From: an uncultured Candidatus Saccharibacteria bacterium | GTDB lineage: Bacteria; Patescibacteriota; Minisyncoccia; UBA6257 | Reading direction: 5' to 3' | NCBI GenBank assembly: GCA_964479005.1 | Contig: CAYZJA010000002.1 | Span: 128,001 to 192,000, forward strand | DNA length: 64,000 nt | Shown here: piece by piece, positions 836 through 48,284 of the stretch | Layout of the letters: every line of letters starts with the position of its first letter | Position numbering within the stretch: position 1 is the stretch's first letter | Translations under genes and position numbers: made by a program | The notes under the pieces: model-generated | What the model was told of the DNA's origin: nothing | Seen by the model: only the letters and a program-made list of their open reading frames with translations | The model's database searches: none

Positions 836-2575
836 ATGAAAATCAAAGATTTTTTAAAAACTTTTTGGGGTGGAGCATTGGTCACAATCCTTATCTTAGC
901 TGCAGGTTATTTTGTTTGGAGTTTTGTAAAAAGCGGAGGAATAACTTTTGCTTTTTTAGGGCCAGACGAAGCAAAGTCAGGCGAGATAAAAGAATTTCAT
1001 TTTGTTTTAAATAATAATTCCAGAGTAAGCCTTCAGGAAGTAGAAGCGGAAATTAATCTTCCAGAAGGAGTGATAGCTGTTGATAATCCAGACCAGAAAA
1101 CTATCTTATATAGTTTAGGCGAAATGCCTCCTCGCGGCTCAGAAGATAAAATAATAAAATTATTAATTACTGGTGAGCCTAAGACAGTTAAAAATATTGA
1201 GGCTATACTTCGCTATCGCCCTAAAACGCTCAGTTCTGTTTTCGAAAAAAAAGAAATAAAAACTGTTTTAATCTCTGGCTCTTCTTTCCAACTGGAATTA
1301 GTAACCCTTAATCAAGTTTTTTCTGAACAGATTTTTCCATTAGAAATAAATTGGGAAAATCTTTCCAGTTATACATTTGATAATGTTGAAATTAGGGCAG
1401 AATGGCCATCAGGATTTGTCTTCCAAGAATCTAATCCTGAGATTTCTTCTGAAAGCTCAGAATATAATAGGTGGACATTAGGAGAATTGAGTCCAGCCAG
1501 TCATGGAAAAATAATAGTGAAAGGATTTACTACTGGTCAGCCAGGCGAGACAAAAAGAACGATTTTGCACTTAGGCATGATTAAGGATAATGTTTTTCTT
1601 CCTTTGGCTAAAACCGAAGGCTATACGACTTTAATAAGAAATCCTTTATTAATTTCATCTTTAGTTAACAGTGAAATAATTCATAATGCCGATTTGGGTG
1701 AAACATTAAATTTTGTTATTGATTATCAGAATAATTATTCTGCCACTTTAAGAAACTTGGTGGTAAAAGTAGTTTTTAGCGGAGATGTTTTTGATTTTTC
1801 TACTCTAAGAGCGCCTAATGGTGCGTTTTCCTCACGCTTGAAAACCTTAACTTGGGAAGGAACAAAAGTACCCCAGCTTTACGCGCTTAATCCTGGCGAG
1901 CGTGGAAATCTTCCATTTTCCATAAAGCTTAAAAAGGATTGGCCGATGAGAAGCCAAGCTCAAAAAAATATAGTTTTGGAAACGCATATTACTATTGAGA
2001 GCTCTAATATTCCAGAGCAGTTAGAAGTTTCTGAGTTACCGCGCGCAGCTGCTTTAAATACGATTAAACTTAATTCAGATAGTAAAGTGGTAATTGGCAG
2101 TTATTTTCGAGATGCTTCTTCAGGAATTGCTAACACAGGAACCCTTCCCTTAAAAGCAGATGAATCAACTGATTTTACTATTCATTGGAAAATTATTAAT
2201 AATTTCAACGCTCTAAAAAATATAACCATAAGAACTACATTGCCTCTTTGGGTGGAATTTACTGGCCAAATTGCAGGGGATTATGGGCAAAATCCGCCAT
2301 ATTATGATTCTGCAATAAGGGAAGTTTCGTGGGCTATTCCTTCTGTTCCTGCCGGCTCAGGAGTTTTAACCAAAGCATCAGAAGCTATCTTTCAGATTAA
2401 AGTTACTCCTTCATCGTCCCAAGTAAATCAGGAGATTGACTTACTTGCTAATACAATTTTTACAGCCACAGATGCGTTCACAGGAAAAAATATTTCATTT
2501 AGTTATCCTGTTGTTAAATCTACGCAATTAACTGATAAGACTGTTTTTGCTGGAGATGGAATAGTAAGACCCTAG
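836..2575 (+). CDS. Hypothetical large membrane-anchored or secreted beta-rich protein (N-terminal TM helix)
   Basis: Long ORF with a hydrophobic N-terminus (GGALVTILILAAGYFVW). No recognisable catalytic motif. Confidence 0.5.
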   Translation: MKIKDFLKTFWGGALVTILILAAGYFVWSFVKSGGITFAFLGPDEAKSGEIKEFHFVLNNNSRVSLQEVEAEINLPEGVIAVDNPDQKTILYSLGEMPPRGSEDKIIKLLITGEPKTVKNIEAILRYRPKTLSSVFEKKEIKTVLISGSSFQLELVTLNQVFSEQIFPLEINWENLSSYTFDNVEIRAEWPSGFVFQESNPEISSESSEYNRWTLGELSPASHGKIIVKGFTTGQPGETKRTILHLGMIKDNVFLPLAKTEGYTTLIRNPLLISSLVNSEIIHNADLGETLNFVIDYQNNYSATLRNLVVKVVFSGDVFDFSTLRAPNGAFSSRLKTLTWEGTKVPQLYALNPGERGNLPFSIKLKKDWPMRSQAQKNIVLETHITIESSNIPEQLEVSELPRAAALNTIKLNSDSKVVIGSYFRDASSGIANTGTLPLKADESTDFTIHWKIINNFNALKNITIRTTLPLWVEFTGQIAGDYGQNPPYYDSAIREVSWAIPSVPAGSGVLTKASEAIFQIKVTPSSSQVNQEIDLLANTIFTATDAFTGKNISFSYPVVKSTQLTDKTVFAGDGIVRP

Positions 2576-2595
2576 TAAATAATTTTTAATTTGTT

Positions 2596-3963
2596 ATGGC
2601 AAATGATTTAATGGAAAAAATTATATCTTTGTGTAAAAGGCGTGGTTTTGTTTATCCCTCTTCTGAGATTTATGGAGGGTTTGCTAATATCTATGATTTT
2701 GGACCATTAGGTTCGCTTTTAGCTAAAAATATTCGGGATGTCTGGATTAAAAAGATGGTTCAAGAGCGAAACGATATGTATTTAATTGATGGCTCGATTT
2801 TAATGCATCCAAAGGCATGGGAAGCCAGTGGGCATACTGCTGCCTTTACCGATCCTTTAATACAATGCCCATCGTGTAAAAAAAGATTTCGAGCAGATAC
2901 ATTAGAAGGCTGGAAACTAGAAAAAGATAATCAAACAGGAAAATGGAATGTTTTGAATCAAGGGAGTTTAATTTGCCCAGATTGTAATGGGGATTTAATT
3001 CCAGATGTTAAAGAATTCAATCTTTTAATGACAACAAGCGTAGGTTCAATTGAAGGGGAAAAGACGGAAGTATATCTTAAGGGTGAATCGTGCCAGAATA
3101 TTTATCTTGATTTTTTGCCAATAAGGGATACGATGGGAGCAAAAATTCCATTTGGTGTTGCGCAAGTTGGTAAAGCTTTTCGTAATGAAATTACATTAGG
3201 TAAATTTCTCTTTAAGGTGAGAGAATTTGAGCAAATGGATATTGAATATTTTTGTTCGCCAGAAGAAGCTAAAAGATTATATGAGGAATGGAAAGATATT
3301 AGATTTAACTGGTATGTTGATACAATTGGCTTAAGTAAAAATAGGCTTCGTTGGAGGCAGCATTTTTCTGAAGAAAGAATTTTTTATGCCAGAGATGCAT
3401 GGGATATTGAGTACAAATTCTTTGATGAGTTTGAGGAATTAGAAGGAATTCATGATCGTTCTGATTATGATTTAAAACAACAAGGAAAGTTTTCTGGAAA
3501 AGCGCTTGATTATTTTGATCCAATAAGCAAAACAAGATTTACTCCAAACATTATTGAATGTTCTGGTGGCCTTCAAAGGACTTTTTTGGCTATTTTAGCA
3601 GAGAGCTATCAAGAAGAGAAAGTAAAAGATGAAAAAAGAGTGTTTTTGAAAATTAAACCGAGCCTTTCTCCATATAAGGTGGCTGTTTTTCCTTTAGTTG
3701 CAAATAAAGATAATTTAACTGAGAAAGCTAAAGATGTCTTTAATCTTTTAAAACCTGAATTTATGACAATGTGGGATAGCATTGGTAATATAGGAAAGAG
3801 ATATCGACGTCAGGATGAGATCGGAACACCTTGGTGTATAACAGTGGATTACCCAACATTAGAAGATAATACTGTTACAATTCGTGATAGGGACACAATG
3901 AAACAACAAAGAATTAAAATCGAAGAAATTATTGGATGGATAAAAGAACAATTAAATGTATAA
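2596..3963 (+). CDS. glyQS: Glycine--tRNA ligase (class II, GlyQS type)
   Basis: The N-terminus RRGFVYPSSEIYGGFANIYDFGPLG... and overall length are characteristic of dimeric GlyRS. Confidence 0.9.
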   Translation: MANDLMEKIISLCKRRGFVYPSSEIYGGFANIYDFGPLGSLLAKNIRDVWIKKMVQERNDMYLIDGSILMHPKAWEASGHTAAFTDPLIQCPSCKKRFRADTLEGWKLEKDNQTGKWNVLNQGSLICPDCNGDLIPDVKEFNLLMTTSVGSIEGEKTEVYLKGESCQNIYLDFLPIRDTMGAKIPFGVAQVGKAFRNEITLGKFLFKVREFEQMDIEYFCSPEEAKRLYEEWKDIRFNWYVDTIGLSKNRLRWRQHFSEERIFYARDAWDIEYKFFDEFEELEGIHDRSDYDLKQQGKFSGKALDYFDPISKTRFTPNIIECSGGLQRTFLAILAESYQEEKVKDEKRVFLKIKPSLSPYKVAVFPLVANKDNLTEKAKDVFNLLKPEFMTMWDSIGNIGKRYRRQDEIGTPWCITVDYPTLEDNTVTIRDRDTMKQQRIKIEEIIGWIKEQLNV

Positions 3964-5227
3964 ATTTAAACTTACAAAGCTAAATAACGGCTTAAGGATT
4001 CTTACTGTTCCTTCAAAAGAATCCTTTTCTTTTAAAGTGGCAGTTTTAGTTAATACTGGCGCTGATTTTGAAACTAAAAAAAACAATGGAATTTCTCATT
4101 TTTTAGAACACTTATGCTTTAAAGGGACTAAGAAACGTCCTTCTAATTTTGCAATTACCCAGGAATTAGATAACATTGGTGGATCTTATAGCGCTTTTAC
4201 AAGTGAAGAGTGTATGGGTTATTATGCTTTGGTATCTCAACAAAAAAAGGATTTGGCTTTAGATATTGTTTCTGATATTTATTTAAATTCCCAATTTCCA
4301 CAAAGAGAAATAAAAAAAGAAAAAGGGGTGATTATTGAAGAAGTTAATACGTACAAAGATAATCCTCAAAGTTATATTTGGGATCTTTGGGAAAGATTGT
4401 TATATGGCCATCAGGCAGTTGGGCGTTCTATCTTAGGAACAAAAACAAATATTAAAAACTTTAAAAGGGATGATTTGTTGAAATATTATGAATCTCAGTA
4501 TAAAGCAAAGTCTACTTTAGTAGTAGTAAGTGGAAACTTTAATGAGAAGGAGATTATTAGTAAAGTAAAAGATTGTTTTCGTGATATTAGATTGGGTAAA
4601 GGCAAGACTAAAGAATTAGTAAAAGAAAAACAAAATAAACCGCAAGTATTTATAAAAAACAAAAAAACAGATCAGACTCATTTAATTTTAGGATTTAGAG
4701 GCATAAATCTATTTGACAAAAGACGATATGCTTTGAACGTATTAAATGCTATTTTTGATGGAGGTATGTCCAGCATTCTTTTTCAGACTATTAGAGAAAA
4801 ATTAGGCGTAGCTTATGATATCAATAGCAACCTTTCTTATTCTACTGATCATGGTTTTTGGGCAGTGGCAACAGGCATAGACAATAACCGCCTAGAAGAA
4901 GTGATTATTTCTGTTTTAGAAGAATGGAAGAAGTTTAAAAGAAAACCGGTTGAGATTAAAGATATTAAAAAAGCTAAAAGCTATATTACTGGTAAACTTG
5001 CATTAGGCCTAGAAAATGTTCATAATGTAGCTAGTAGTTTTGCTCTTCTAGAATTATTAAAGCAAAAAATAGAAACGCCAGATCAATATTTAAAAAAGAT
5101 TAGACAAGTTACTGCGCGCGATATTCAGAAAGTGGCAGAAGATTTATTACAACCTCAGTCTCTAAATTTAACTTTAATTGGTCCTCACAAAAATAAACAG
5201 AAATTACAAAAATTGCTTCATGTTTAA
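3956..5227 (+). CDS. M16 family zinc peptidase (pitrilysin/insulinase-like)
   Basis: Inverted zinc-binding motif HFLEHLCFKGT (HxxEH) near the N-terminus. The start overlaps the glyQS stop. Confidence 0.8.
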   Translation: MYKFKLTKLNNGLRILTVPSKESFSFKVAVLVNTGADFETKKNNGISHFLEHLCFKGTKKRPSNFAITQELDNIGGSYSAFTSEECMGYYALVSQQKKDLALDIVSDIYLNSQFPQREIKKEKGVIIEEVNTYKDNPQSYIWDLWERLLYGHQAVGRSILGTKTNIKNFKRDDLLKYYESQYKAKSTLVVVSGNFNEKEIISKVKDCFRDIRLGKGKTKELVKEKQNKPQVFIKNKKTDQTHLILGFRGINLFDKRRYALNVLNAIFDGGMSSILFQTIREKLGVAYDINSNLSYSTDHGFWAVATGIDNNRLEEVIISVLEEWKKFKRKPVEIKDIKKAKSYITGKLALGLENVHNVASSFALLELLKQKIETPDQYLKKIRQVTARDIQKVAEDLLQPQSLNLTLIGPHKNKQKLQKLLHV

Positions 5228-6269
5228 AACAGCTCAAAATATAGATATTTCCTGGCAGAGCATTTTACGGCTTTATGTTATTTTATTGGTTTTTATCGCA
5301 GCTTGGTACTTTAGGCAGGCTATTTTTATTATTTTACTTGGTTTTATTGTAGCTTCGCTTTTGGATAGGCCAATAGATTATTTTGAAGAGAAGTGGAAAA
5401 ATCGTTGGCTGGCAACTTTTATCATTTATTTTATCTTTTTAAGTGTATTAGGATTGATTGCTTATTTATTTATTCCAGTTTTTAATAATTATATAGTTGG
5501 GTTTTTAGATTTTTTCCCATCATGGATGAATAAAGGAGCCTTTCTTCAACTATGGCAAGGATGGCAATCTGTAGAATTTCCAATGCAAAATTGGCTAAGT
5601 TTGTTAGGTATTTCCCAGGGACAATTATCAGAATTTTTGCTTCAGTCTGGTAATTTGCTCACCAAGATTTTGGGAGGAGCTTTTTCTGCTTTTTTTGTTC
5701 TTCTTTTGTCTTTTTTTATTAATACAGAAAAAAAAGGAATAGAAAAAGCAATTCGTTTGATTTTTCCAAGCGCTTATGAAGATTACGCGGTTTATCTTTG
5801 GGGAAAAACACGCCGTAAAGTTGGAAGTTGGTTTTTTAGCCAATTAATTCTTAGTTGTATAGTTGGGAGCTTGGTTTTTATTAGCCTAAAAATGTTAGGA
5901 GTTCCTCAAGCTGAATTTTTAGCAATATTAGCTGCTCTATTTGATTTTATTCCATATGTAGGCCCTTTAATTATTGGTTTTGTAGCATTCTTAGTTGGAA
6001 TAAGTCAAAGTTTATTCCTGGGAATTTCAATACTAATTATTTTTATTATCATTCAGGCCATTGAAGGTTTTATCGGCCCATTATTGCGGGCTAAAACAAT
6101 GAAATTAAATCCATTGGTAATTATTTTAGCTGTTTTAATTGGTGGAAAATTAGCTGGAGTTGCCGGGATTATTATTGCTTTACCATTAGCAGCAGCCGCA
6201 ATTGGGTTGATTAGGGATATCCAAACAGGTCGCATCACTGCTTATTTACCACAGAAACAGCTTTTATAA
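5220..6269 (+). CDS. AI-2E family transporter (PerM/UPF0118 membrane protein)
   Basis: Multi-TM protein with typical AI-2E topology. Start moved to the ATG at 5220 (ATGTTTAA overlap with the upstream stop). The 5178 ATG lies inside the upstream gene. Confidence 0.7.
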   Translation: MFKTAQNIDISWQSILRLYVILLVFIAAWYFRQAIFIILLGFIVASLLDRPIDYFEEKWKNRWLATFIIYFIFLSVLGLIAYLFIPVFNNYIVGFLDFFPSWMNKGAFLQLWQGWQSVEFPMQNWLSLLGISQGQLSEFLLQSGNLLTKILGGAFSAFFVLLLSFFINTEKKGIEKAIRLIFPSAYEDYAVYLWGKTRRKVGSWFFSQLILSCIVGSLVFISLKMLGVPQAEFLAILAALFDFIPYVGPLIIGFVAFLVGISQSLFLGISILIIFIIIQAIEGFIGPLLRAKTMKLNPLVIILAVLIGGKLAGVAGIIIALPLAAAAIGLIRDIQTGRITAYLPQKQLL

Positions 6270-6286
6270 AATAGCCCCATCTGAAT

Positions 6287-7279
6287 ATGGTGAACATTTT
6301 AATTTCCAAAATTGATTTAAAAAATCTATATTTAGATAAAAAATTAACTACTTATGATATAGCTAAATTTTATAATTGTTCTCAGGGAACAATATGGAAA
6401 AGATTAAAAAGATTTAATATAAAAACGAGATTTTCTTGGAATGAGGTCAACCTTTCTAAGAAAAAACTGAGGGATTTATATACTAAAGATAAATTATCTA
6501 CTTGGCAGATAGAAAAGATTTTGAAAATACCTAGGAGTACAATTTATAGAAAACTTATAGATTATAATATTCCTGTAAGAAATCTGGCGCAGTCTCATAT
6601 TATTTATCCACGAAAGAATTTTAATGGAAACAAAACAGAAAAGGCTTATCTTATGGGTTTTGCAATTGGGGATTTAAGAGTAAGAAAAATATATAAAAAT
6701 AGTGAAACAATTCACATTGATTGTGGCTCTACTAAGAAAGAACAGATAAAACTTATATCAGATTTATTTAAACCTTATGGAAGGGTTTGGATTAGTAAAC
6801 CCAATAGGATAAAAGCTGTTCAAATAGAGTGTTCTGTCAATAATTCTTTCGGTTTTTTGCTAGAAAAGAAGAAATTTTTAGATAACTGGATTTTAGCTAA
6901 CAAAAGATATTTCTTTTCTTTCTTAGCAGGTTTTACTGATGCTGAAGGATGTATTTCAGTAACGTCAAAAGGACAAGCTTTCTATTCTTTAGGAAATTAT
7001 AATGATACACTCTTAAAACAAATAAGGGATAGACTCATTCGATGGGGAATAGAGGTGCCGAAACTTACTAGAAGCCGGACACATTTAGGGTATATTACTA
7101 AAGAGGGCTATACGATTAATCATATTTATTGGATACTGCACATTAATAGAAAACAATTCCTTCTGTTATTATTTGATTTAATGGGCCCGCATCTTAAGCA
7201 TTTTGCAAAAATTCAGGGGTTATTAAAGGCTCAAAAAAATATAGAAGAAAGAAATAAAAAAATTTTTAATTTAAAATGA
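6287..7279 (+). CDS. Free-standing LAGLIDADG-family (double-motif) endonuclease-like protein with two N-terminal HTH repeats
   Basis: Two LAGLIDADG-like motifs (LMGFAIGDLRV and FLAGFTDAEGCIS). They are preceded by two ~35-aa HTH-like repeats (TTYDIAKFYNCSQGTIWKRLKRFNI and STWQIEKILKIPRSTIYRKLIDYNI). Confidence 0.65.
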   Translation: MVNILISKIDLKNLYLDKKLTTYDIAKFYNCSQGTIWKRLKRFNIKTRFSWNEVNLSKKKLRDLYTKDKLSTWQIEKILKIPRSTIYRKLIDYNIPVRNLAQSHIIYPRKNFNGNKTEKAYLMGFAIGDLRVRKIYKNSETIHIDCGSTKKEQIKLISDLFKPYGRVWISKPNRIKAVQIECSVNNSFGFLLEKKKFLDNWILANKRYFFSFLAGFTDAEGCISVTSKGQAFYSLGNYNDTLLKQIRDRLIRWGIEVPKLTRSRTHLGYITKEGYTINHIYWILHINRKQFLLLLFDLMGPHLKHFAKIQGLLKAQKNIEERNKKIFNLK

Positions 7280-7316
7280 AACATAAATAAATATAATTTT
7301 CAAAAATAAACTTTTT

Positions 7317-8801
7317 ATGTCTAAACATTGCATTTATATTTCTACTGCTATTGATTATCCTTCTAACAAGCCTCATCTTGGGCATGCTTTAGAAAAAATT
7401 CAAGCCGATGCTTTAGCGCGTTATTTTAGGTTCCAGGAGAAAGAAGTGTATTTTAGTACTGGGACTGATGAACACGGGCTTAAAATTCAAAAATGTGCAG
7501 AGAAAGCAGAAAAAACGCCTCAACAATTTGTTGATGAAATGGTTAGTTATTTTAAGAATCTTGATAAGGTTTTAGATATTTCTTACGATGATTTTATTAG
7601 AACGTCTGAGTCACGGCATATAAAAGTAGTAGAAGAGATAATTAAGAAAATCTATCAAAAAGGCGATATCTACAAAGGCAGATACAAAGGTTTGTATTGT
7701 ATGGAATGCGAAACTTATTATTTGCCAAAAGACATTCCAGAAGGGAAATGCCCTGTTCATCATTTGATGTTAGAGCAGGTTGAAGAAGAAACATATTTTT
7801 TCAAAATGGGCAAATATAAGGAGGAAATATTTAAACATATTCAAGAGAAATCTAATTTTATTATGCCTGAAAACAGAAAGAAGGAAATTCTGAATCGCCT
7901 TTCTGAACCTATTCAGGATTTAAGTATTTCTCGTAAAAATGTTAAATGGGGTATTCCTTTACCTTGGGACAAAGAGTTCACTTTGTTCGTTTGGGTAGAC
8001 GCTTTGATTAATTATTTATCTACTCTAGATTATTCGAAAGAAAGGTTTAAAAAATTTTGGTCGGATCAAAACGAAGTCTACCATATAATCGGGAAAGATA
8101 TTATTTGGCATCATAGTGTTATTTGGAGCAGTTTATTGCTTTCAGCTGGCTTACCTCTGCCTAAAACTATTTTTGTTCATGGTTTCATTACTGTTGAAGG
8201 AGAAAAAATGTCAAAATCATTGGGAAATATTATTAATCCTGTAGAGTTAGTTGAAAAATATGGCGCTGATGTAGTGCGTTATTTCCTTCTTCGAGAGTTT
8301 TCTCCTTTTGAAGATGGTGATTTTTCTGAACAAAGATTAAAGGAGCGTTATAATTCTGATTTGGCACAAGGCTTAGGTAATTTAGTTTCACGCGTCTTGG
8401 CTTTAGGAGAGCAATATGGGAAACAGATAATGGTTCAATGTTTGGATTCCGATTTGATTACTAAGTCTTGGAGCGATTATAAAAAGCAGATGGAAGCGTT
8501 TCGTTTTAATGATGCTTTAGCAACTACTTGGAATTTAATTTCTTATTGCGATAAATATATCAGTGATACGAAACCGTGGGAAAAAATTAGTGATGAAAAA
8601 GAATTTCAGAAAATCTTAGGCGCATTAGTATATATATTAGGTAATATTTCTTTAATGCTTTCTCCGGCAATGCCTAAAACATCTGAAAAGATACTCGAAT
8701 TTCTTAAATTACAAGGTAGATCAAAACAAGATTGGTTGTCACAAAAGGTTTTACTTGAAAAACAACCACCTTTGTTCCCAAAAAAGGAATCACGAAGTTA
8801 A
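7317..8801 (+). CDS. metG: Methionine--tRNA ligase (short form)
   Basis: Class I HIGH-type motif (PHLGHALE) and KMSKS motif (KMSKSLGN). At 494 aa it lacks the C-terminal tRNA-binding extension. Confidence 0.9.
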   Translation: MSKHCIYISTAIDYPSNKPHLGHALEKIQADALARYFRFQEKEVYFSTGTDEHGLKIQKCAEKAEKTPQQFVDEMVSYFKNLDKVLDISYDDFIRTSESRHIKVVEEIIKKIYQKGDIYKGRYKGLYCMECETYYLPKDIPEGKCPVHHLMLEQVEEETYFFKMGKYKEEIFKHIQEKSNFIMPENRKKEILNRLSEPIQDLSISRKNVKWGIPLPWDKEFTLFVWVDALINYLSTLDYSKERFKKFWSDQNEVYHIIGKDIIWHHSVIWSSLLLSAGLPLPKTIFVHGFITVEGEKMSKSLGNIINPVELVEKYGADVVRYFLLREFSPFEDGDFSEQRLKERYNSDLAQGLGNLVSRVLALGEQYGKQIMVQCLDSDLITKSWSDYKKQMEAFRFNDALATTWNLISYCDKYISDTKPWEKISDEKEFQKILGALVYILGNISLMLSPAMPKTSEKILEFLKLQGRSKQDWLSQKVLLEKQPPLFPKKESRS

Positions 8802-8803
8802 TT

Positions 8804-9655
8804 ATGTTTTTTGACTCTCATACACATTTAAATTTAGTTGCTTTTGACAAAGATAGAGAAGAAATAATAAGAAAAACCCTGGAACAGGGTATTTTTGTAA
8901 TTAATATAGGAACTTGCTATGAAACTTCTAAAAAAGCAATAGAAATTGCTCAACAATATGAAAATTGTTGGGCTACAGTAGGGTTACATCCTAGCCATAC
9001 AATACCAATGAAAATTGATAAAAGTGAATTAAAGATAAGTAGCAAGGAGGATGTATCAGAAGCAGAAGTTTTTAATGAAAAATTTGAATCACTTTTAAAA
9101 GAAGCCTTCAACTTTGCTCAGGGCAGGCCCAAAGTAGTAGCTATTGGTGAGTGCGGATTGGATTATAGTTATTTGAAAGATTTTTCTGGAAAGGATCAAA
9201 TAAAGTATGCAAAGATGGAAGAGGAAGAGTTTAGAAAACAAATTCAAGCTGCCAAAAAATATAATTTACCTTTGTCTCTACATATACGTGATTTATATGA
9301 AAAAGCCTTAATAATTTTGGAAGAAGAAAGATATAAGGGCGAGGCAGTATTCCATTTCTTTACTGGTAAAGTGAATCAGGCGCAAAAGATTTTAAAAAAA
9401 GGATTTTATTTAGGTTTTTCAGGTATCATTACATATTCAGAAATAATGAATGATGTTATTAAAAACGCACCGCTTGAGAAGATATTAATTGAAACAGACG
9501 CTCCTTACGTAGCACCAGTTCCTTATAGAAGCAATAGAAACGAGCCAATCTATGTAAAGGAAGTAGCTAAAAAAATTGCCCAGATAAAAAAACTTCCTCT
9601 AAAAAAGATAGAGGAAGCTACATTTAAAAACACTTTGCGACTTTTTGGAATATAA
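8804..9655 (+). CDS. tatD: TatD family metal-dependent hydrolase/DNase
   Basis: N-terminal FDSHTHL motif with ...GECGLDY and ...ETDAPY signature regions. Confidence 0.85.
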   Translation: MFFDSHTHLNLVAFDKDREEIIRKTLEQGIFVINIGTCYETSKKAIEIAQQYENCWATVGLHPSHTIPMKIDKSELKISSKEDVSEAEVFNEKFESLLKEAFNFAQGRPKVVAIGECGLDYSYLKDFSGKDQIKYAKMEEEEFRKQIQAAKKYNLPLSLHIRDLYEKALIILEEERYKGEAVFHFFTGKVNQAQKILKKGFYLGFSGIITYSEIMNDVIKNAPLEKILIETDAPYVAPVPYRSNRNEPIYVKEVAKKIAQIKKLPLKKIEEATFKNTLRLFGI

Positions 9656-43315: not shown

Positions 43316-44129
43316 TAAAATACTTCTATTTTAATTGCAACGTTCTTGATTTATAATCAGAAAGTTGCAATAATAAGAAGGCTGAATAAAATATGAAAAT
43401 CTTTAAAGAAAACTCTCAGAAACAAAGAAGTTGGTAGGTGTATTACACACGTATTTTAACGCCACCACTTCATGGTGGCTTTTTTAATCCAAGATTTTCT
43501 GACAGAGAGTTCACAAGAGATGACTGAACTTTGAAAACGACTGTCTTTAGTTTGTCTTTTCACTAAAGATGGGAAAGTTGTATTAAGGGCAGATGGTGGA
43601 TGCCTTGACACAGTAAGGCGATGAAGGACGCGGCGTAGCTGCGATAAGCCTCGGGAAGGTGCGTAGTAACCTTTGATCCGGGGATTTCCGAATGGGGCAA
43701 CCCATTCCGATTAATATCGGAATATCCTGATTTTAATAATTAGGAGGCGTACCTGGGGAAGTGAAACATCTCAGTACCCAGAGGAAAAGAAAACAATAAA
43801 ATACATTTTACTACTGTTGTTTAGTACTGAATAGTAGCTAAATGTATTTGTGATTCCTTGAGTAGCGGCGAGTGAAAGAGGAGAAGCCTAAACCAAGCAT
43901 TCAATTTATTGAGTATTTGGGGTTATAAGGTGGATGCGCGGAAGCTTCGGCTTTCAAAATTTAAATCATAATTAATTAAATTATCTGGAAAGATAAACCA
44001 CAGAGGGTGAAAGTCCCGTAGATGAAAATTATTATTGAATTTAGTATCTTTTCTTAATTACCTCGGGGACAGATAACCTTGAGGGAAGGATCCGGAACTA
44101 TACCGGAAAGGCTAAATACTTACTGTGAT

Positions 44130-44175
<46 letters not shown>

Positions 44176-45733
44176 GAGGGGAGTGAAATAGAACCTGAAA
44201 CCATTTTGCCTACAAGCAATCGAAGTCGAGCACTCAGTTTTCTGAGTGCTGGATAACGGTGTGCCTATTGAAGAATGAGCCGACGAGTTTATATCTACTG
44301 CTTAGATTAATTTCGTAAATCGAAAGTAGTCATAGGGAAACCGAGTGTTAATAGCGCGTCATTAATTCTTCTTTTTATCTCGGTTTTCGGGATAAAAAGA
44401 TTAATTAAAATGTAGTGGATATGAGACCCGAAGCCAGGCGAGCTTGCCATGACCAGGATGAACCCCATAGAAATATGGGTGGAGGTCCGAACCCGTGAGC
44501 CGTTCAATACTCTGGGATGAGTTGTGGTAAGGAGTGAAAAGCTAATCGAGCCTGGGAATAGCTGGTTCTCCCCGAAATAGCTTTAGGGCTAGCGGGCTAT
44601 TTATCCTTATGGGGGTAGAGCACTGGATGGTGTGTATAGGGCGAAAGCTCAGCTCACCAATCAAACTCCGAATACCATTAAGGTTATGATAGCCTAGTTA
44701 GACTATGGGGGCGAAGCTCCATGGTCAAAAGGCAACGAATCCAGATCGCAGTTTAAGGTCCCTAAATTTTGGTTAAGTGCTGTCAAAGGTAGTAATTTAC
44801 CATAGACAATTAGTAGGTTGGCTTAGAGGTAGCCATCCTTTAAAGAGTGTGTAACAACTCACTATTCGATCTTGATCTTCGGATCAAGGTGGTAAATTGC
44901 GCCGAAAATGTATCGGGGCTAAAACCAAATACCGAAAACGCGAATTTATCCCAACTAAGGTTGGGGTGAGTGGTAGGGGAGCGTTTCTTAAGCATTGAAG
45001 TTCATAACGTGAGTTTGGATGGAGCTTAAGGAAGTGAGAATGTCGGCATGAGTAACCACAATCCTGATGAGAATTCAGGACTCCGTAAACCTAAGGTTTC
45101 TTTGGCAATGACAATCAGCCAAAGGTTAGGCGGTCCTAAGGCAATGGCGAAAGCTGCAGCCGATGGACAGCCGGTTAATATTCCGGCCCTTCCATTTTTT
45201 TCGATGGGATGACGGAGTGTAGTAGATCGAGCATCTTAGTGGTCTGATGTCTTCGACCGAGAGTGTGTGTCAGGCAAATCCGGCGCATGGTCCCGATTTA
45301 TCGGGACAACTTTCAGGGTAGAAGCGAATTAAGGTTTTTCCTTAATAAGTTGATCGAGCGCACTTCCAAGAAAAATCTCTAAGAATAGGAAAATGGAATC
45401 CGTACCGTAAACCAACACAGGTAGGTGAGGCGAGTAGCCTCAGGAGAACGAGTGATTCCTCGTTAAGGAACTCGGCAAAAAAGCGGGCGTAACTTCGGGA
45501 TAAGCCCTTCCTACCTAAATTTTGCTTGCAAAGTTTAGGCAGGGCGCAGCGAAAGTTTCCCTGGCGACTGTTTACCAAAAACACAGGTCCCTGCGAAACC
45601 GTAAGGTGATGTATAGGGGCTGATGCCTGTCCGATGCCAGAAGGTTAAGAGCGTCGGTCATTTCGATTTATCGGAATGGCTAAGTGCTTGAAGCCCTGGT
45701 CAATGACAGCGATAACTATAATCGTTCTAAGGT

Positions 45734-46449
45734 GGGATACTGCCTTAGTAAAATTCGGCTATATGCTGGAACATCTGGTGTATCCAAGACTACTATGGTA
45801 TAATATGACCATAAAAATATGAGTTATAATATACCAAGTAACAATGTTTTTGGCGCAGACAATCAGCAGGAAAGACTCAGAATTGCTTATTGGATTTTAG
45901 GCTTTACTGATGGTGAAGGATGTTTTTCAATTGCTGTGATAGAGAACAAAACTACTAAATTTGGGAAACAGATTTTTCCTGAATTTGTAATTACACAAGG
46001 AGAAAAAAGTTTAACTGCATTAAAGAAAATTAAAAAATTCTTTGGTTGCGGAAACATTTTTATCAACAAACGATATGATAATCATAATGAGAACTTATAT
46101 CGTTATTGTGTACGTTCTTTACATGACTTAGATAAGAAAATAATTCCGTTTTTTGAAAAATATCAACTCCAAACGTATAAGCAAAATGATTTTTTAATTT
46201 TTAAAAAAGTCATAAAATTCATGATAAAGAAAGAACATTTAACTGAAAAAGGCAGAAAGAAAATTCTTGTCCTCCTCAGTAAAATGAACCATAGAAAAAA
46301 GCGATTTTGAGAATCCTCAGAGACTATATGCCGAACTCCAATATTATATTGGAGAAGATATAGTCCGAACTGCATAGCGATATGCAGAAATAAGCAGAAA
46401 TGTTTATTCGACCTTTAGATTGATTTTCTAGAGGTTAGTAACAAAATTG
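45734..46449 (+). mobile_element. Group I intron in 23S at the I-CeuI-type site (E. coli ~L1923; ...CTAAGGT^AGCGAAATTCC...)
   Basis: Exon sequence resumes exactly with AGCGTAATTCCTTGTCGGGTAA. The intron follows an exon U and ends with G. Confidence 0.75.
45819..46310 (+). CDS. Intron-encoded single-motif LAGLIDADG homing endonuclease
   Basis: LGFTDGEGCF motif. 163 aa, entirely inside 23S intron 1. Confidence 0.8.
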   Translation: MSYNIPSNNVFGADNQQERLRIAYWILGFTDGEGCFSIAVIENKTTKFGKQIFPEFVITQGEKSLTALKKIKKFFGCGNIFINKRYDNHNENLYRYCVRSLHDLDKKIIPFFEKYQLQTYKQNDFLIFKKVIKFMIKKEHLTEKGRKKILVLLSKMNHRKKRF

Positions 46450-47110
46450 AGCGTAATTCCTTGTCGGGTAATTTCCGACGTGCATGAAAGGTATAACGAC
46501 TGGGGAACTGTCTCAACGAGGAGCTCGGTGAAAATGCGTGTCCAGCGAAGACGCTGGGTACCCGCAGCAAGACGAAAAGACCCTAGAAGCTTTACTACAG
46601 CTTGGTATTGAATTTAGTTTTAATCTGCGTAGCGTAGCGGGGAGACTTTGAAGTTTCGCTTTCGGGCGAGATGGAGTCGCCAATGAAACACCCGTCTTTT
46701 TGAAGCTATGTTCTAATCCCGACGGCAAAAACGTCGTGAGACAGTGCCTGGTGGGTAGTTTTCGTGGGGCGCGATCCTCCTAAAGAGTAACGGAGGAGCC
46801 TACTAAGGTTGGCTATCTGCCAATGGAAACGGCAGAGGTAGTGTAAAGGCAAAAGCCAGCTTTATAGTGAGGGAGACATCCCAAACTATTGCGAAAGCAG
46901 AGCTTAGTGACCCGATACGTCATTGTAGAATGCGTAGAGACGTCGGATAAAAGCTACTCTAGGGATAACAGGCTGGTGGAGCCCGAAAGTTCATATCGAC
47001 GGCTCCGCTCGGCACCTCGATGTCGGCTCATCTTATCCTGGGGCTGAAGAAGGTCCCAAGGGTTTGGCTGTTCGCCAATTAAAAAGATACGCGAGCTGGG
47101 TTCAGACCGT

Positions 47111-47838
47111 CGATTTGGCGGCCTAGAAGAGTAATCTTCTATGGAAAAAGTTGACTCATATAGATGAAACCCTATTACATAAATTGTATTTTAACCTGTC
47201 GTGTGGTAGGATAATATCTAGGGAAGTTTAACTTTTTTAAACGTGAAACATCTTTCAAAGACTCAATGTGCTTATATCGCTGGGTTTTTAGATGGTGACG
47301 GAAGTCTTTATATTAGGATTAAACCTAATAAGGATTATCGGTTTAACTATCAAATAGCCCCCAATATAGTATTTTATCAATCCCAAAAAGGATGGTTATT
47401 TCTTCAGAAAATTAAAAAAATGATTAGCGCTGGTTATATGAGAAAAAGAAATGACGGGATTGCAGAATATATTATTGGTGATGTAGCAACAATGTCTTCT
47501 TTGTTGAAGCAAATATCTTCATTTCTGATATTTAAAAAGAAACAAGCACAATTGTTTCTAAGAATTCTTCAAAAGAAAACAAAGGTAAAAACAAAAGAAG
47601 ATTTTATAGCTTTAGCTATAATGATTGATAAATTGGAAAAATTAAATTATTCCAAAAAAAGGCGCATTACTTCGCAAGTTGTTATCAACACGTTAAAAAA
47701 GTTGTAACCCCTTAGAGACTTGTTCTGGTTTTTACCAGAACGGAATAGAGATTTTTAATCTCTATTAATACGTCAACCTCCTAATAAAATATTAGGATGA
47801 TGGTATAGTCCATACATAAAGTAATTTATGATTATATG
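47111..47838 (+). mobile_element. Group I intron in 23S at the I-CreI-type site (E. coli ~L2593; ...ACCGU^CGUGAGACAG...)
   Basis: Exon sequence resumes with CGTGAGACAGGTCGG. The boundary has a 2-nt ambiguity (CG duplicated). Confidence 0.75.
47243..47707 (+). CDS. Intron-encoded single-motif LAGLIDADG homing endonuclease
   Basis: IAGFLDGDGSL motif. 154 aa, inside 23S intron 2. Confidence 0.8.
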   Translation: MKHLSKTQCAYIAGFLDGDGSLYIRIKPNKDYRFNYQIAPNIVFYQSQKGWLFLQKIKKMISAGYMRKRNDGIAEYIIGDVATMSSLLKQISSFLIFKKKQAQLFLRILQKKTKVKTKEDFIALAIMIDKLEKLNYSKKRRITSQVVINTLKKL

Positions 47839-48175: not shown

Positions 48176-48284
48176 CCGCTGGTGTTTTACTTAATTATGG
48201 TCCACCTCTTCCCATTCCGAACAGAGAAGTGAAAGTAATTAAGCCCGATGATACTCTTTTGGGGAAAGTAGGGTATGCCAGCGG
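48176..48284 (+). rRNA. rrf: 5S rRNA
   Basis: CCGCTGGTG...CCCATTCCGAACAGAGAAGTGAAAG...GCCAGCGG with helix I closing, followed by a T-run. Confidence 0.8.

Follow-up and report, generated by a model that had tools for sequence, protein, structure and literature searches.

Much is known of free-standing homing endonucleases from phages and organelles. In T-even phages, intronless homing with co-conversion is established for free-standing endonucleases of the GIY-YIG (seg) and HNH (mob) types, whose genes lie between conserved genes, cut the neighbouring gene in genomes that lack them and are inherited together with the co-converted flanks (PMC2988022). In bacteria of the candidate phyla radiation (CPR), insertions and introns of ribosomal RNA (rRNA) genes house LAGLIDADG endonucleases (PMC11270868). 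Here we examine an open reading frame (ORF) of 330 amino acids (aa) located directly upstream of metG, the gene of methionyl-tRNA synthetase (MetRS), in a 64,000-nucleotide stretch of DNA from an uncultured Candidatus Saccharibacteria bacterium (contig CAYZJA010000002.1, positions 128,001 to 192,000; hereafter the window). The ORF codes for two N-terminal helix-turn-helix (HTH) repeats followed by a double LAGLIDADG core, and from sequence comparison we consider it, with a probability of about 0.75, to be an active free-standing LAGLIDADG homing endonuclease gene that has the 5' end of metG as its homing site. This reading is based on an intact predicted active site, a fixed site by one conserved gene, presence and absence among relatives, transfer independent of the host genome, and conversion tracts.

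Taking SegF/gene 56, SegG/gene 32 and MobE/nrdB as the phage examples for comparison, the family of the window ORF resembles these elements in having no intron or intein, in adjoining a conserved essential gene as its presumed target, in being present or absent in syntenic genomes, in the co-conversion of the target-gene flank with mosaic genes as the outcome, and in the fusion of the nuclease to modular HTH-type modules. It differs from them in that the nuclease is of the LAGLIDADG type and not GIY-YIG or HNH, that the family resides in the cellular chromosomes of CPR bacteria and DPANN archaea while a scan of viral contigs found none, that one target gene is kept across two domains and 31 or more contexts, that the DNA-binding modules are N-terminal tandem repeats, one to four in number, and that the element is inserted at, or in-frame with, the start of the target gene. 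By analogy, the family would work like the Seg and Mob elements, but it is not a member of them. With the LAGLIDADG enzymes of CPR rRNA insertions it shares the host group, the superfamily and homing to highly conserved housekeeping sequences, whereas those enzymes lie inside rRNA insertions or introns and the window family is free-standing by metG; the terms 'free-standing', 'metG', 'methionyl' and 'helix-turn-helix' are all absent from the main text of that report (PMC11270868).

The gene and the parts of its product, in window coordinates, are:

6287..7279, + strand: HTH-HTH-LAGLIDADG gene, 330 aa (ORF, Pfam, structure model, homologs)
6302..6430, + strand: HTH repeat 1, aa 6-48, helices 8-17, 22-29 and 33-42 (Pfam HTH_23, model, repeat alignment)
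6452..6580, + strand: HTH repeat 2, aa 56-98, helices 58-67, 72-79 and 83-92 (Pfam, model, repeat alignment)
6599..7276, + strand: double LAGLIDADG nuclease core, aa 105-330 (model, Foldseek)
6647..6685, + strand: LAGLIDADG motif 1, YLMGFAIGDLRVR, aa 121-133, with D129 (120-homolog alignment)
6920..6958, + strand: LAGLIDADG motif 2, FLAGFTDAEGCIS, aa 212-224, with D218 and E220 (120-homolog alignment)

An earlier sequence-only reading of the window had described this ORF as a double-motif LAGLIDADG protein with two N-terminal HTH repeats, located between an AI-2E transporter gene and metG. The ORF list gives an ATG-started frame at exactly these coordinates and of this length (upstream AI-2E, downstream metG), and both features of the architecture are confirmed. 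In the Pfam scan, HTH_23 (aa 14-44, 29.4 bits against a cutoff of 24.6) and LAGLIDADG_3 (aa 211-262, 27.5 bits against 22.5) both scored above the gathering threshold, with a further HTH-like match at aa 63-102, and the two repeats align with each other at 37% identity (E=1e-8). An AlphaFold model, computed from a 32-sequence family alignment (predicted local distance difference test score, pLDDT, 88.6; predicted template-modelling score, pTM, 0.73), places two three-helix bundles at the N-terminus (8-42 and 58-92) and folds aa 116-329 into two alpha-beta-beta-alpha-beta-beta-alpha half-domains, with the motif helices at 116-129 and 206-220. As a sequence search of the PDB yielded weak matches only, at motif 2, a fold search was needed; all of the top 50 Foldseek PDB matches were LAGLIDADG endonucleases or maturases at a probability of 1.00, the best being PI-PfuI (4.5e-9), and I-WcaI, I-DmoI, I-OnuI, I-AniI and the bI3 maturase were also among them, at 13-20% identity.

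The same earlier reading had proposed a structure prediction as a check on the catalytic acids, and in the model D129 and E220 are retained and terminate both LAGLIDADG helices, the position of the catalytic acidic residues in this enzyme class. In motif 1, G124, F125, G128, D129, L130 and R133 are invariant in 120/120 homologs, as are G215, D218, A219 and G221 in motif 2, while residue 220 is E in 117 and D in 3. The modelled protein is therefore an intact double-motif LAGLIDADG fold with both predicted catalytic acidic residues kept. It shares with the monomeric enzymes I-DmoI, I-AniI, I-OnuI and the endonuclease domain of PI-PfuI the double alpha-beta-beta-alpha-beta-beta-alpha fold and the two acid-ended LAGLIDADG helices, and is unlike these intron or intein enzymes in its low identity to them (13-20% only), in having no host intron or intein, in the roughly 100 extra N-terminal residues of HTH repeats, and in a motif 1 that reads GDLRVR instead of ending in G.

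The family is large: a word-indexed search returned 358 homologs (E<=1e-3), the best 120 of which are 47-100% identical over most or all of the query, and an exhaustive profile search returned 533 cluster representatives at 50% identity (E<=1e-30). Members have one, two (the majority) or four N-terminal HTH repeats. NCBI names one of them 'LAGLIDADG family homing endonuclease' and another 'hypothetical protein'.

That the gene is in neither an intron nor an intein, as had been claimed from the sequence, holds as well, since the Pfam scan found no Hint or intein domain at the ORF, no Rfam intron was found at window positions 6000-7400, and metG is intact, the 330-aa gene being a separate ORF with its own start and stop codons. 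The surroundings on which the following comparisons draw are:

5178..6269, + strand: AI-2E transporter gene (Pfam AI-2E_transport, 5e-51)
6270..6286, + strand: 17-nucleotide (nt) spacer after the AI-2E stop codon, putative left edge of the mobile tract (junction comparison)
7280..7316, + strand: 37-nt spacer from the endonuclease stop to the metG start
7317..8801, + strand: metG, methionyl-tRNA synthetase, 494 aa, the invariant 3' partner and presumed target (Pfam tRNA-synt_1g, 4e-106)
8205..8219, + strand: KMSKS-coding segment of metG, codons 297-301, the region in which conversion tracts end
6790..8100, + strand: putative replacement (conversion) tract of the window's own lineage (identity profile against locus L091)

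The attachment of the gene to metG was found wherever it could be examined. The six homologs that were placed on contigs (6 distinct loci) all lie directly 5' of metG on the same strand; CPR bacterial loci with this arrangement are L001-L005, and the same linkage occurs on the archaeal contigs L006-L009, which carry genes for MCM, exosome Rrp41/42/4, prefoldin, Pcc1 and ribosomal protein L37ae. Scanning metagenomes with the family alignment added 80 further loci, 76 of them with downstream sequence and four on contigs that end inside the gene, and metG starts no more than about 150 nt past the end of the gene in 76/76 testable loci. These metagenomic homologs are 39-88% identical to the window protein, and all homologs tested for linkage span 39-100%. 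In a Nanoarchaeota metagenome-assembled genome from the genome scan (L084), the gene is also directly upstream of metG. The gap between the two genes in relatives ranges from about -121 to +55 nt, and is mostly an overlap, as estimated from the start given by the ORF caller. In every locus examined, in CPR bacteria and DPANN archaea, the family is thus always found at the 5' end of metG. The earlier description of a gene 'between housekeeping genes' was right about the location and incomplete in that the gene is specifically attached to the metG 5' end.

The upstream side shows no such constancy. The immediate upstream neighbours fall into 31 unrelated clusters among 66 loci, and include archaeal L15e (L130), MCM, TruD, a TrmB-type regulator, RmuC, Ham1, TP-methylase and AI-2E. 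In L152, the family member (305-1276) is upstream of a different, Zn-knuckle type MetRS (1277-2698) that is only 27% identical to the window MetRS, which argues that the linkage is to metG as such and not to one MetRS lineage. A few loci have the two genes joined in a single ORF (823 aa at most), whose junction reads '...NKRNKRK-MEGKNFQISTAIDYP':

L137, 63-2432: in-frame endonuclease-metG ORF
L141, 3920-6391: in-frame endonuclease-metG ORF
L167, 2-2272: in-frame endonuclease-metG ORF, cut by the contig end

An internal Met is present at the MetRS start in these fused ORFs, and their products could be an endonuclease-MetRS fusion protein plus an internally initiated MetRS.

Although it is always attached to metG, the gene is sporadic among syntenic relatives. 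A scan with a MetRS alignment covered one genome per GTDB species, of which the best 80 metG loci were kept, and the gene is present in 1 of these (L084). Among the remainder are the closest relatives of the window MetRS in this set, namely L010 (Paceibacterota, 60%), L011 (56%) and the archaeal L078 (56%). The empty loci L010, L036 and L037 keep the order M16, AI-2E, metG; L011 (AI-2E, TP-methylase, metG) is the empty counterpart of L004; and L078 (YdjM, HAD, metG, with the next gene on the opposite strand like SepF in L008) is that of L008. A search for decayed copies of the gene at the 79 empty sites gave nothing (E<=1).

The pair L008 and L078 offers a view of the insertion point. Their alignment resumes exactly at 'CAAAAA(C/A)TTTTT(C/T)ATAACAAC', around metG codon 5, and just 5' of the endonuclease ATG, in-frame, L008 reads 'AGGTGATAAAGTT' where L078 has 'AGGTGGTCAAATT'. 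Although the match is short, 'AGGTGATAAAGTT' is likely a remnant of the original metG start, which suggests that the element was inserted into the first metG codons and that its 3' end supplied the new metG start. Many C-termini of the family end in a conserved ...(F/Y)GNINM (alignment columns 495-511), followed by 0-10 variable residues to the stop. The conserved Met may descend from an earlier start codon of metG; the codon that follows it is the same as the second codon of the adjoining metG in L006 and L002. On the left side, the junction sequences show TAAAATAGCC to be common to relatives at the 6270..6286 spacer.

Recent movement of the gene together with part of its neighbour is best seen in the transfer tracts. 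In the 59 loci whose genes are complete, the identities of endonuclease and MetRS are correlated (r=0.71), with strong outliers, among them L094 and L092, whose endonucleases are 98.5% identical while the whole MetRS proteins are at 83%. These two genomes are syntenic, with flanking DNA only 55-75% identical, and the DNA identity profile reveals a tract of ~1,950 bp at 97-100% identity (about 99% overall) with 16 mismatches only. On the left the tract begins at the AI-2E stop codon, some 20 nt short of the endonuclease ATG, and on the right it ends 25-100 nt beyond the KMSKS-coding segment of metG, at ~nucleotide 940, so that MetRS aa 1-305 are 99.7% identical and aa 320 to the end 53.5%. Against its closest relative, L091, the window shows the inverse pattern: glyS, M16, AI-2E, the 3' third of metG and tatD are 85-90% identical and the 5' half of the endonuclease gene 77-96%, but from ~6790 (mid-endonuclease) to ~8100 (metG nucleotide ~800) identity is only 55-70%, recovering about 75-100 nt before the KMSKS-coding segment. 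Judging from this profile, the segment in question is a second replacement tract in the window copy, independent of that in L094/L092. A divergent island of this kind is also seen in L100/L101, where the 5' half of the endonuclease gene is ~99% identical and MetRS aa 1-305 only ~48%, and L098/L101 have the same pattern across the endonuclease-metG junction. The region common to the mapped tracts extends from the 3' half of the endonuclease gene to metG nucleotide ~800, and on these alignments MetRS aa 1-305 and aa 320 to the end have largely uncoupled histories, making the genes of these lineages mosaics.

Such mosaics could in principle have arisen by ordinary homologous recombination, or by assembly chimerism, at a conserved gene and in a manner unrelated to the ORF, the conserved HIGH and KMSKS regions of metG being able to serve as points of recombination or mis-assembly. 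We regard this as very improbable. Both forms of the L094/L092 tract were seen in two separate assemblies each (L092/L093 and L094/L002) and at the left edge the common sequence, of only about 12 nt, is too short to give k-mer chimerism, which makes an assembly artefact unlikely; in addition, the left edge coincides with the boundary of the element, and several independent tracts all cross the endonuclease-metG junction.

The linkage is not even along the two genes. MetRS aa 1-305 correlate best with endonuclease aa 206-325 (r=0.6), less so with aa 105-205 (0.38) and with the HTH region (0.29), while the C-terminal part of MetRS correlates at ~0.4 with every segment, and this decay places the centre of the linkage block at the endonuclease-metG junction and the metG 5' part. 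Many pairs whose flanks cannot be aligned share an island of 60-80% DNA identity that comprises the endonuclease gene and about two-thirds of metG. The block has also to be weighed as a possible two-gene 'cleave-and-rescue' cassette, in which the endonuclease would destroy the resident metG and a linked, cleavage-resistant metG segment would rescue the cell, so that selection would drive the pair and the metG 5' segment would be an immunity determinant co-evolving with the specificity of the nuclease. The single linkage block of the C-terminal nuclease half-domain and MetRS aa 1-305, the divergent islands of endonuclease 3' half plus metG 5' part in otherwise close relatives, and the shared islands of endonuclease plus two-thirds of metG in unrelated genomes would all fit such a cassette. 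However, it is largely a special case of homing with marker exclusion and co-conversion, MetRS proteins from loci with the homing endonuclease gene do not cluster apart from those without it, and a comparison of DNA logos of filled (61) and empty (69) alleles, from -45 to +75 around the conserved STAIDY codons, found no discriminating positions and hence no resistant or sensitive signature. As a separate explanation, we consider the cassette unlikely.

A broader version of this idea may be put forward tentatively, and we hold it to be possible though doubtful: the family would be a natural cross-domain gene drive on metG, with competing specificity variants and matching cleavage-immune metG 5' segments, overwriting the catalytic two-thirds of MetRS time and again in CPR bacteria and DPANN archaea, and with a protein that may in addition be an autoregulator of the metG operon. 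If this were true, a selfish endonuclease would be chiefly responsible for the mosaic structure of metG and for bacterial-archaeal gene flow in these episymbiont communities.

The exchange of metG itself appears to be wider than the element. The parallel between endonuclease and MetRS identities was tried as proof of a cassette co-inherited across domains and was rejected, as this MetRS type is 40-60% identical across many phyla. MetRS from filled loci are no closer to the window MetRS than those from empty loci: the latter is 60% identical to the empty L010 and 56% to the empty archaeal L078, but 47-55% to the filled L004, L006 and L008. The short (~490 aa) MetRS type (L010-L089 against the window) shows 40-60% identity across CPR, DPANN, Omnitrophota, Nitrospirota, Elusimicrobia and others, and the unusually high similarity of bacterial and archaeal MetRS suggests wide horizontal metG exchange beyond the element-bearing loci.

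A different account of the linkage is that the ORF encodes a domesticated LAGLIDADG-HTH protein, WhiA-like, which acts as a regulator of the metG operon or as a MetRS partner, the linkage then being functional (an operon) and not a matter of homing. WhiA has lost its catalytic residues, has a C-terminal HTH domain and is vertically conserved in fixed synteny. The window family resembles it in that a free-standing chromosomal gene encodes both a double LAGLIDADG scaffold and an HTH domain, and is unlike it in its invariant catalytic residues, N-terminal HTHs, patchy mobile distribution and lack of any match to the WhiA Pfam families in the 330-aa protein. Several observations would suit a regulator: the invariant position beside metG on the same strand, in many cases with stop and start codons that overlap, and the in-frame MetRS fusion in L137 and L141/L167; the tandem HTH domains, which are typical of regulators; the persistence of the linkage by a different MetRS subtype (L152); and the state of the gene itself. 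In informative, non-saturated pairs, the ratio of nonsynonymous to synonymous substitution rates (dN/dS) is 0.10-0.20 for the endonuclease gene, equal to the 0.09-0.23 of metG (the identical values of both genes in L137/L141 are an artefact of the genuine in-frame fusion ORF), and nearly every copy is intact, with two of about 90 possibly defective. These two are L159, where a 214-aa copy without HTH repeats (3995-4639) lies directly downstream of a DDE transposase gene, and L163, where a 4-HTH copy (3719-5124) is split by a frameshift and could be a pseudogene or a sequencing error.

Nevertheless, a regulatory function as the main explanation, whether of a domesticated protein or of a DNA-binding regulator derived from an endonuclease, both of which had been suggested from the sequence, is not supported, given the patchy distribution and a movement of the gene that is independent of the host genome, and we judge it improbable. 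Both catalytic acids, lost in WhiA, are kept family-wide; most close relatives of the same synteny lack the gene, and sister lineages could not do without a regulator that metG needed; a near-identical copy stands amid flanks of 55-75% identity, with the tract edge at the gene boundary; and related metG genes bear divergent copies, as in L114 and L141, where metG is 75% identical and the endonucleases are at 48%. The suggestion of a free-standing homing endonuclease, by comparison, is strongly supported by the intact predicted fold with D129 and E220, by presence and absence in syntenic genomes and by the recent co-conversion tracts. A secondary regulatory role beside homing may exist, comparable to that of I-TevI, which represses its own promoter, and such a host-level role may consist, for instance, in autoregulation of the metG operon. 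A promoter and terminator scan found promoter-like sites in the operon at chance counts; a 10/12 promoter-like match at 7270-7297, just 5' of metG, was not counted as evidence.

Under the homing reading, we propose the following course of events. The protein would bind a long DNA site, of which the double LAGLIDADG core would cover ~20 bp and the tandem HTH modules would make flanking contacts, and would cut both strands of metG alleles without the element or with a variant of different specificity. The site of the break would be either the insertion point, near metG codon 4-5, or some position in the first ~800 nt of metG, and repair from an element-bearing donor would copy the endonuclease gene together with the adjoining 5' two-thirds of metG, that is, by co-conversion. 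Resolution on the right side would usually occur in the highly conserved KMSKS-coding region, and on the left side at the left edge of the element or within the conserved HTH-coding half. As the element would be in-frame with or tightly abut the metG start and be co-transcribed with it, the essential gene would stay functional. We infer from these comparisons that the protein cleaves DNA, that its own breaks began the tracts, and, from the overlap of the tracts, where the cleavage takes place; movement of the DNA between cells and between domains is likewise inferred.

Several points weigh against this reading. Cleavage by the protein is predicted from comparative data, and the conversion tracts alone do not prove breaks made by this protein. 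The conserved metG 5' DNA is alike in filled and empty alleles, with no recognition-site signature. The classical homing cycle of invasion, decay and loss predicts many decayed copies, unlike the mere two possibly defective ones observed here, and with a dN/dS as low as that of an essential gene, there could be an additional host-level function; the intact copies and the strong purifying selection are thus at odds with that cycle. Homing across unrelated upstream flanks, or across domains, could not use two-sided homology, so that an extra step would be needed, such as one-sided invasion, end-joining or cassette capture. Finally, the scan of viral contigs turned up no relative of the gene, so that no transfer vehicle was identified there.

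The rRNA operon of the window bears on one more suggestion made from the sequence, namely that the protein is a maturase-like factor acting in trans on the 23S rRNA insertion or insertions of the same genome. The relevant features are:

43573-47141: 23S rRNA gene, ~640 nt longer than the Rfam model
45819-46310, + strand: 163-aa single-motif LAGLIDADG ORF, motif ILGFTDGEGCF, in the ~640-nt 23S insertion
47243-47707, + strand: 154-aa LAGLIDADG_1 ORF (Pfam 2e-10), motif IAGFLDGDGS, between the 23S 3' end (47141) and 5S (48177-48284)

The extra length of the 23S gene is compatible with such a role, and LAGLIDADG proteins can be maturases, with the bI3 maturase and I-AniI among the fold matches of the 330-aa protein. 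However, the two 23S-associated ORFs are unrelated single-motif proteins, the family tracks metG and never rRNA in 80-plus loci, and from its catalytic residues and DNA-binding HTH modules a DNA substrate is more likely than RNA. The maturase suggestion has no support, and there is hardly any chance that it is correct. The search for paralogs of the 330-aa protein in the window turned up only these unrelated single-motif LAGLIDADG ORFs. The ORF at 47243-47707 could be a second endonuclease gene of the rRNA operon, either free-standing in the spacer or in an undetected 23S 3' insertion.

A literature search of incomplete coverage, which is not proof of novelty, gave no account of LAGLIDADG elements in CPR or DPANN organisms that are free-standing or linked to metG, nor of any LAGLIDADG family that resides free in the chromosomes of cellular prokaryotes, keeps to one essential gene in both Bacteria and Archaea and visibly rewrites it by co-conversion. 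Free-standing homing with co-conversion is already known; the new aspects are the combination of nuclease and DNA-binding architecture, the cellular host range across two domains, and one essential target gene that has visibly been shaped. The family would be a concrete route, defined by sequence, along which genes have recently passed among, and possibly between, CPR and DPANN organisms; it would also account for mosaic aminoacyl-tRNA synthetase genes in these lineages, in which metG is a poor phylogenetic marker. In addition, it would offer hundreds of natural monomeric meganuclease scaffolds with 1 to 4 HTH add-on modules, and since the presumed target gene is present in every cell, it may be of interest for engineering and gene-drive design.

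The HTH repeat is not confined to the LAGLIDADG family. The N-terminal ~118 aa of the window protein match phage families annotated as HNH endonuclease or endonuclease. In P0167 (821 aa), ~14 copies of this HTH repeat, a unit of ~55 aa, precede a C-terminal HNH nuclease motif, P0150 (701 aa) has ~12 copies without a recognisable nuclease, and in P0133 (556 aa) the repeat flanks a LAGLIDADG core on both sides. The repeat thus appears to be a portable, modular DNA-binding unit shared among nuclease families.

The wider neighbourhood in the window, in which an RNase J gene is located on the opposite strand, further comprises:

2596-3963, + strand: GlyRS gene
3956-5227, + strand: M16 peptidase gene
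8804-9655, + strand: TatD gene

Other homing elements were noted in two of the archaeal settings. In L008 (8454-9425, - strand) and L009 (5386-6357, - strand), an unrelated LAGLIDADG_2 gene (PF03161, 3.5e-33) lies directly downstream of metG, on the strand opposite to it; this second gene is absent from the syntenic empty L078 and from every other locus, and metG in this archaeal lineage is thus bracketed by two different homing-endonuclease-like genes. In L006, the archaeal MCM gene (1622-5740, - strand) contains two inteins (Intein_splicing and LAGLIDADG_3 matches), making this genome host to several kinds of homing elements.

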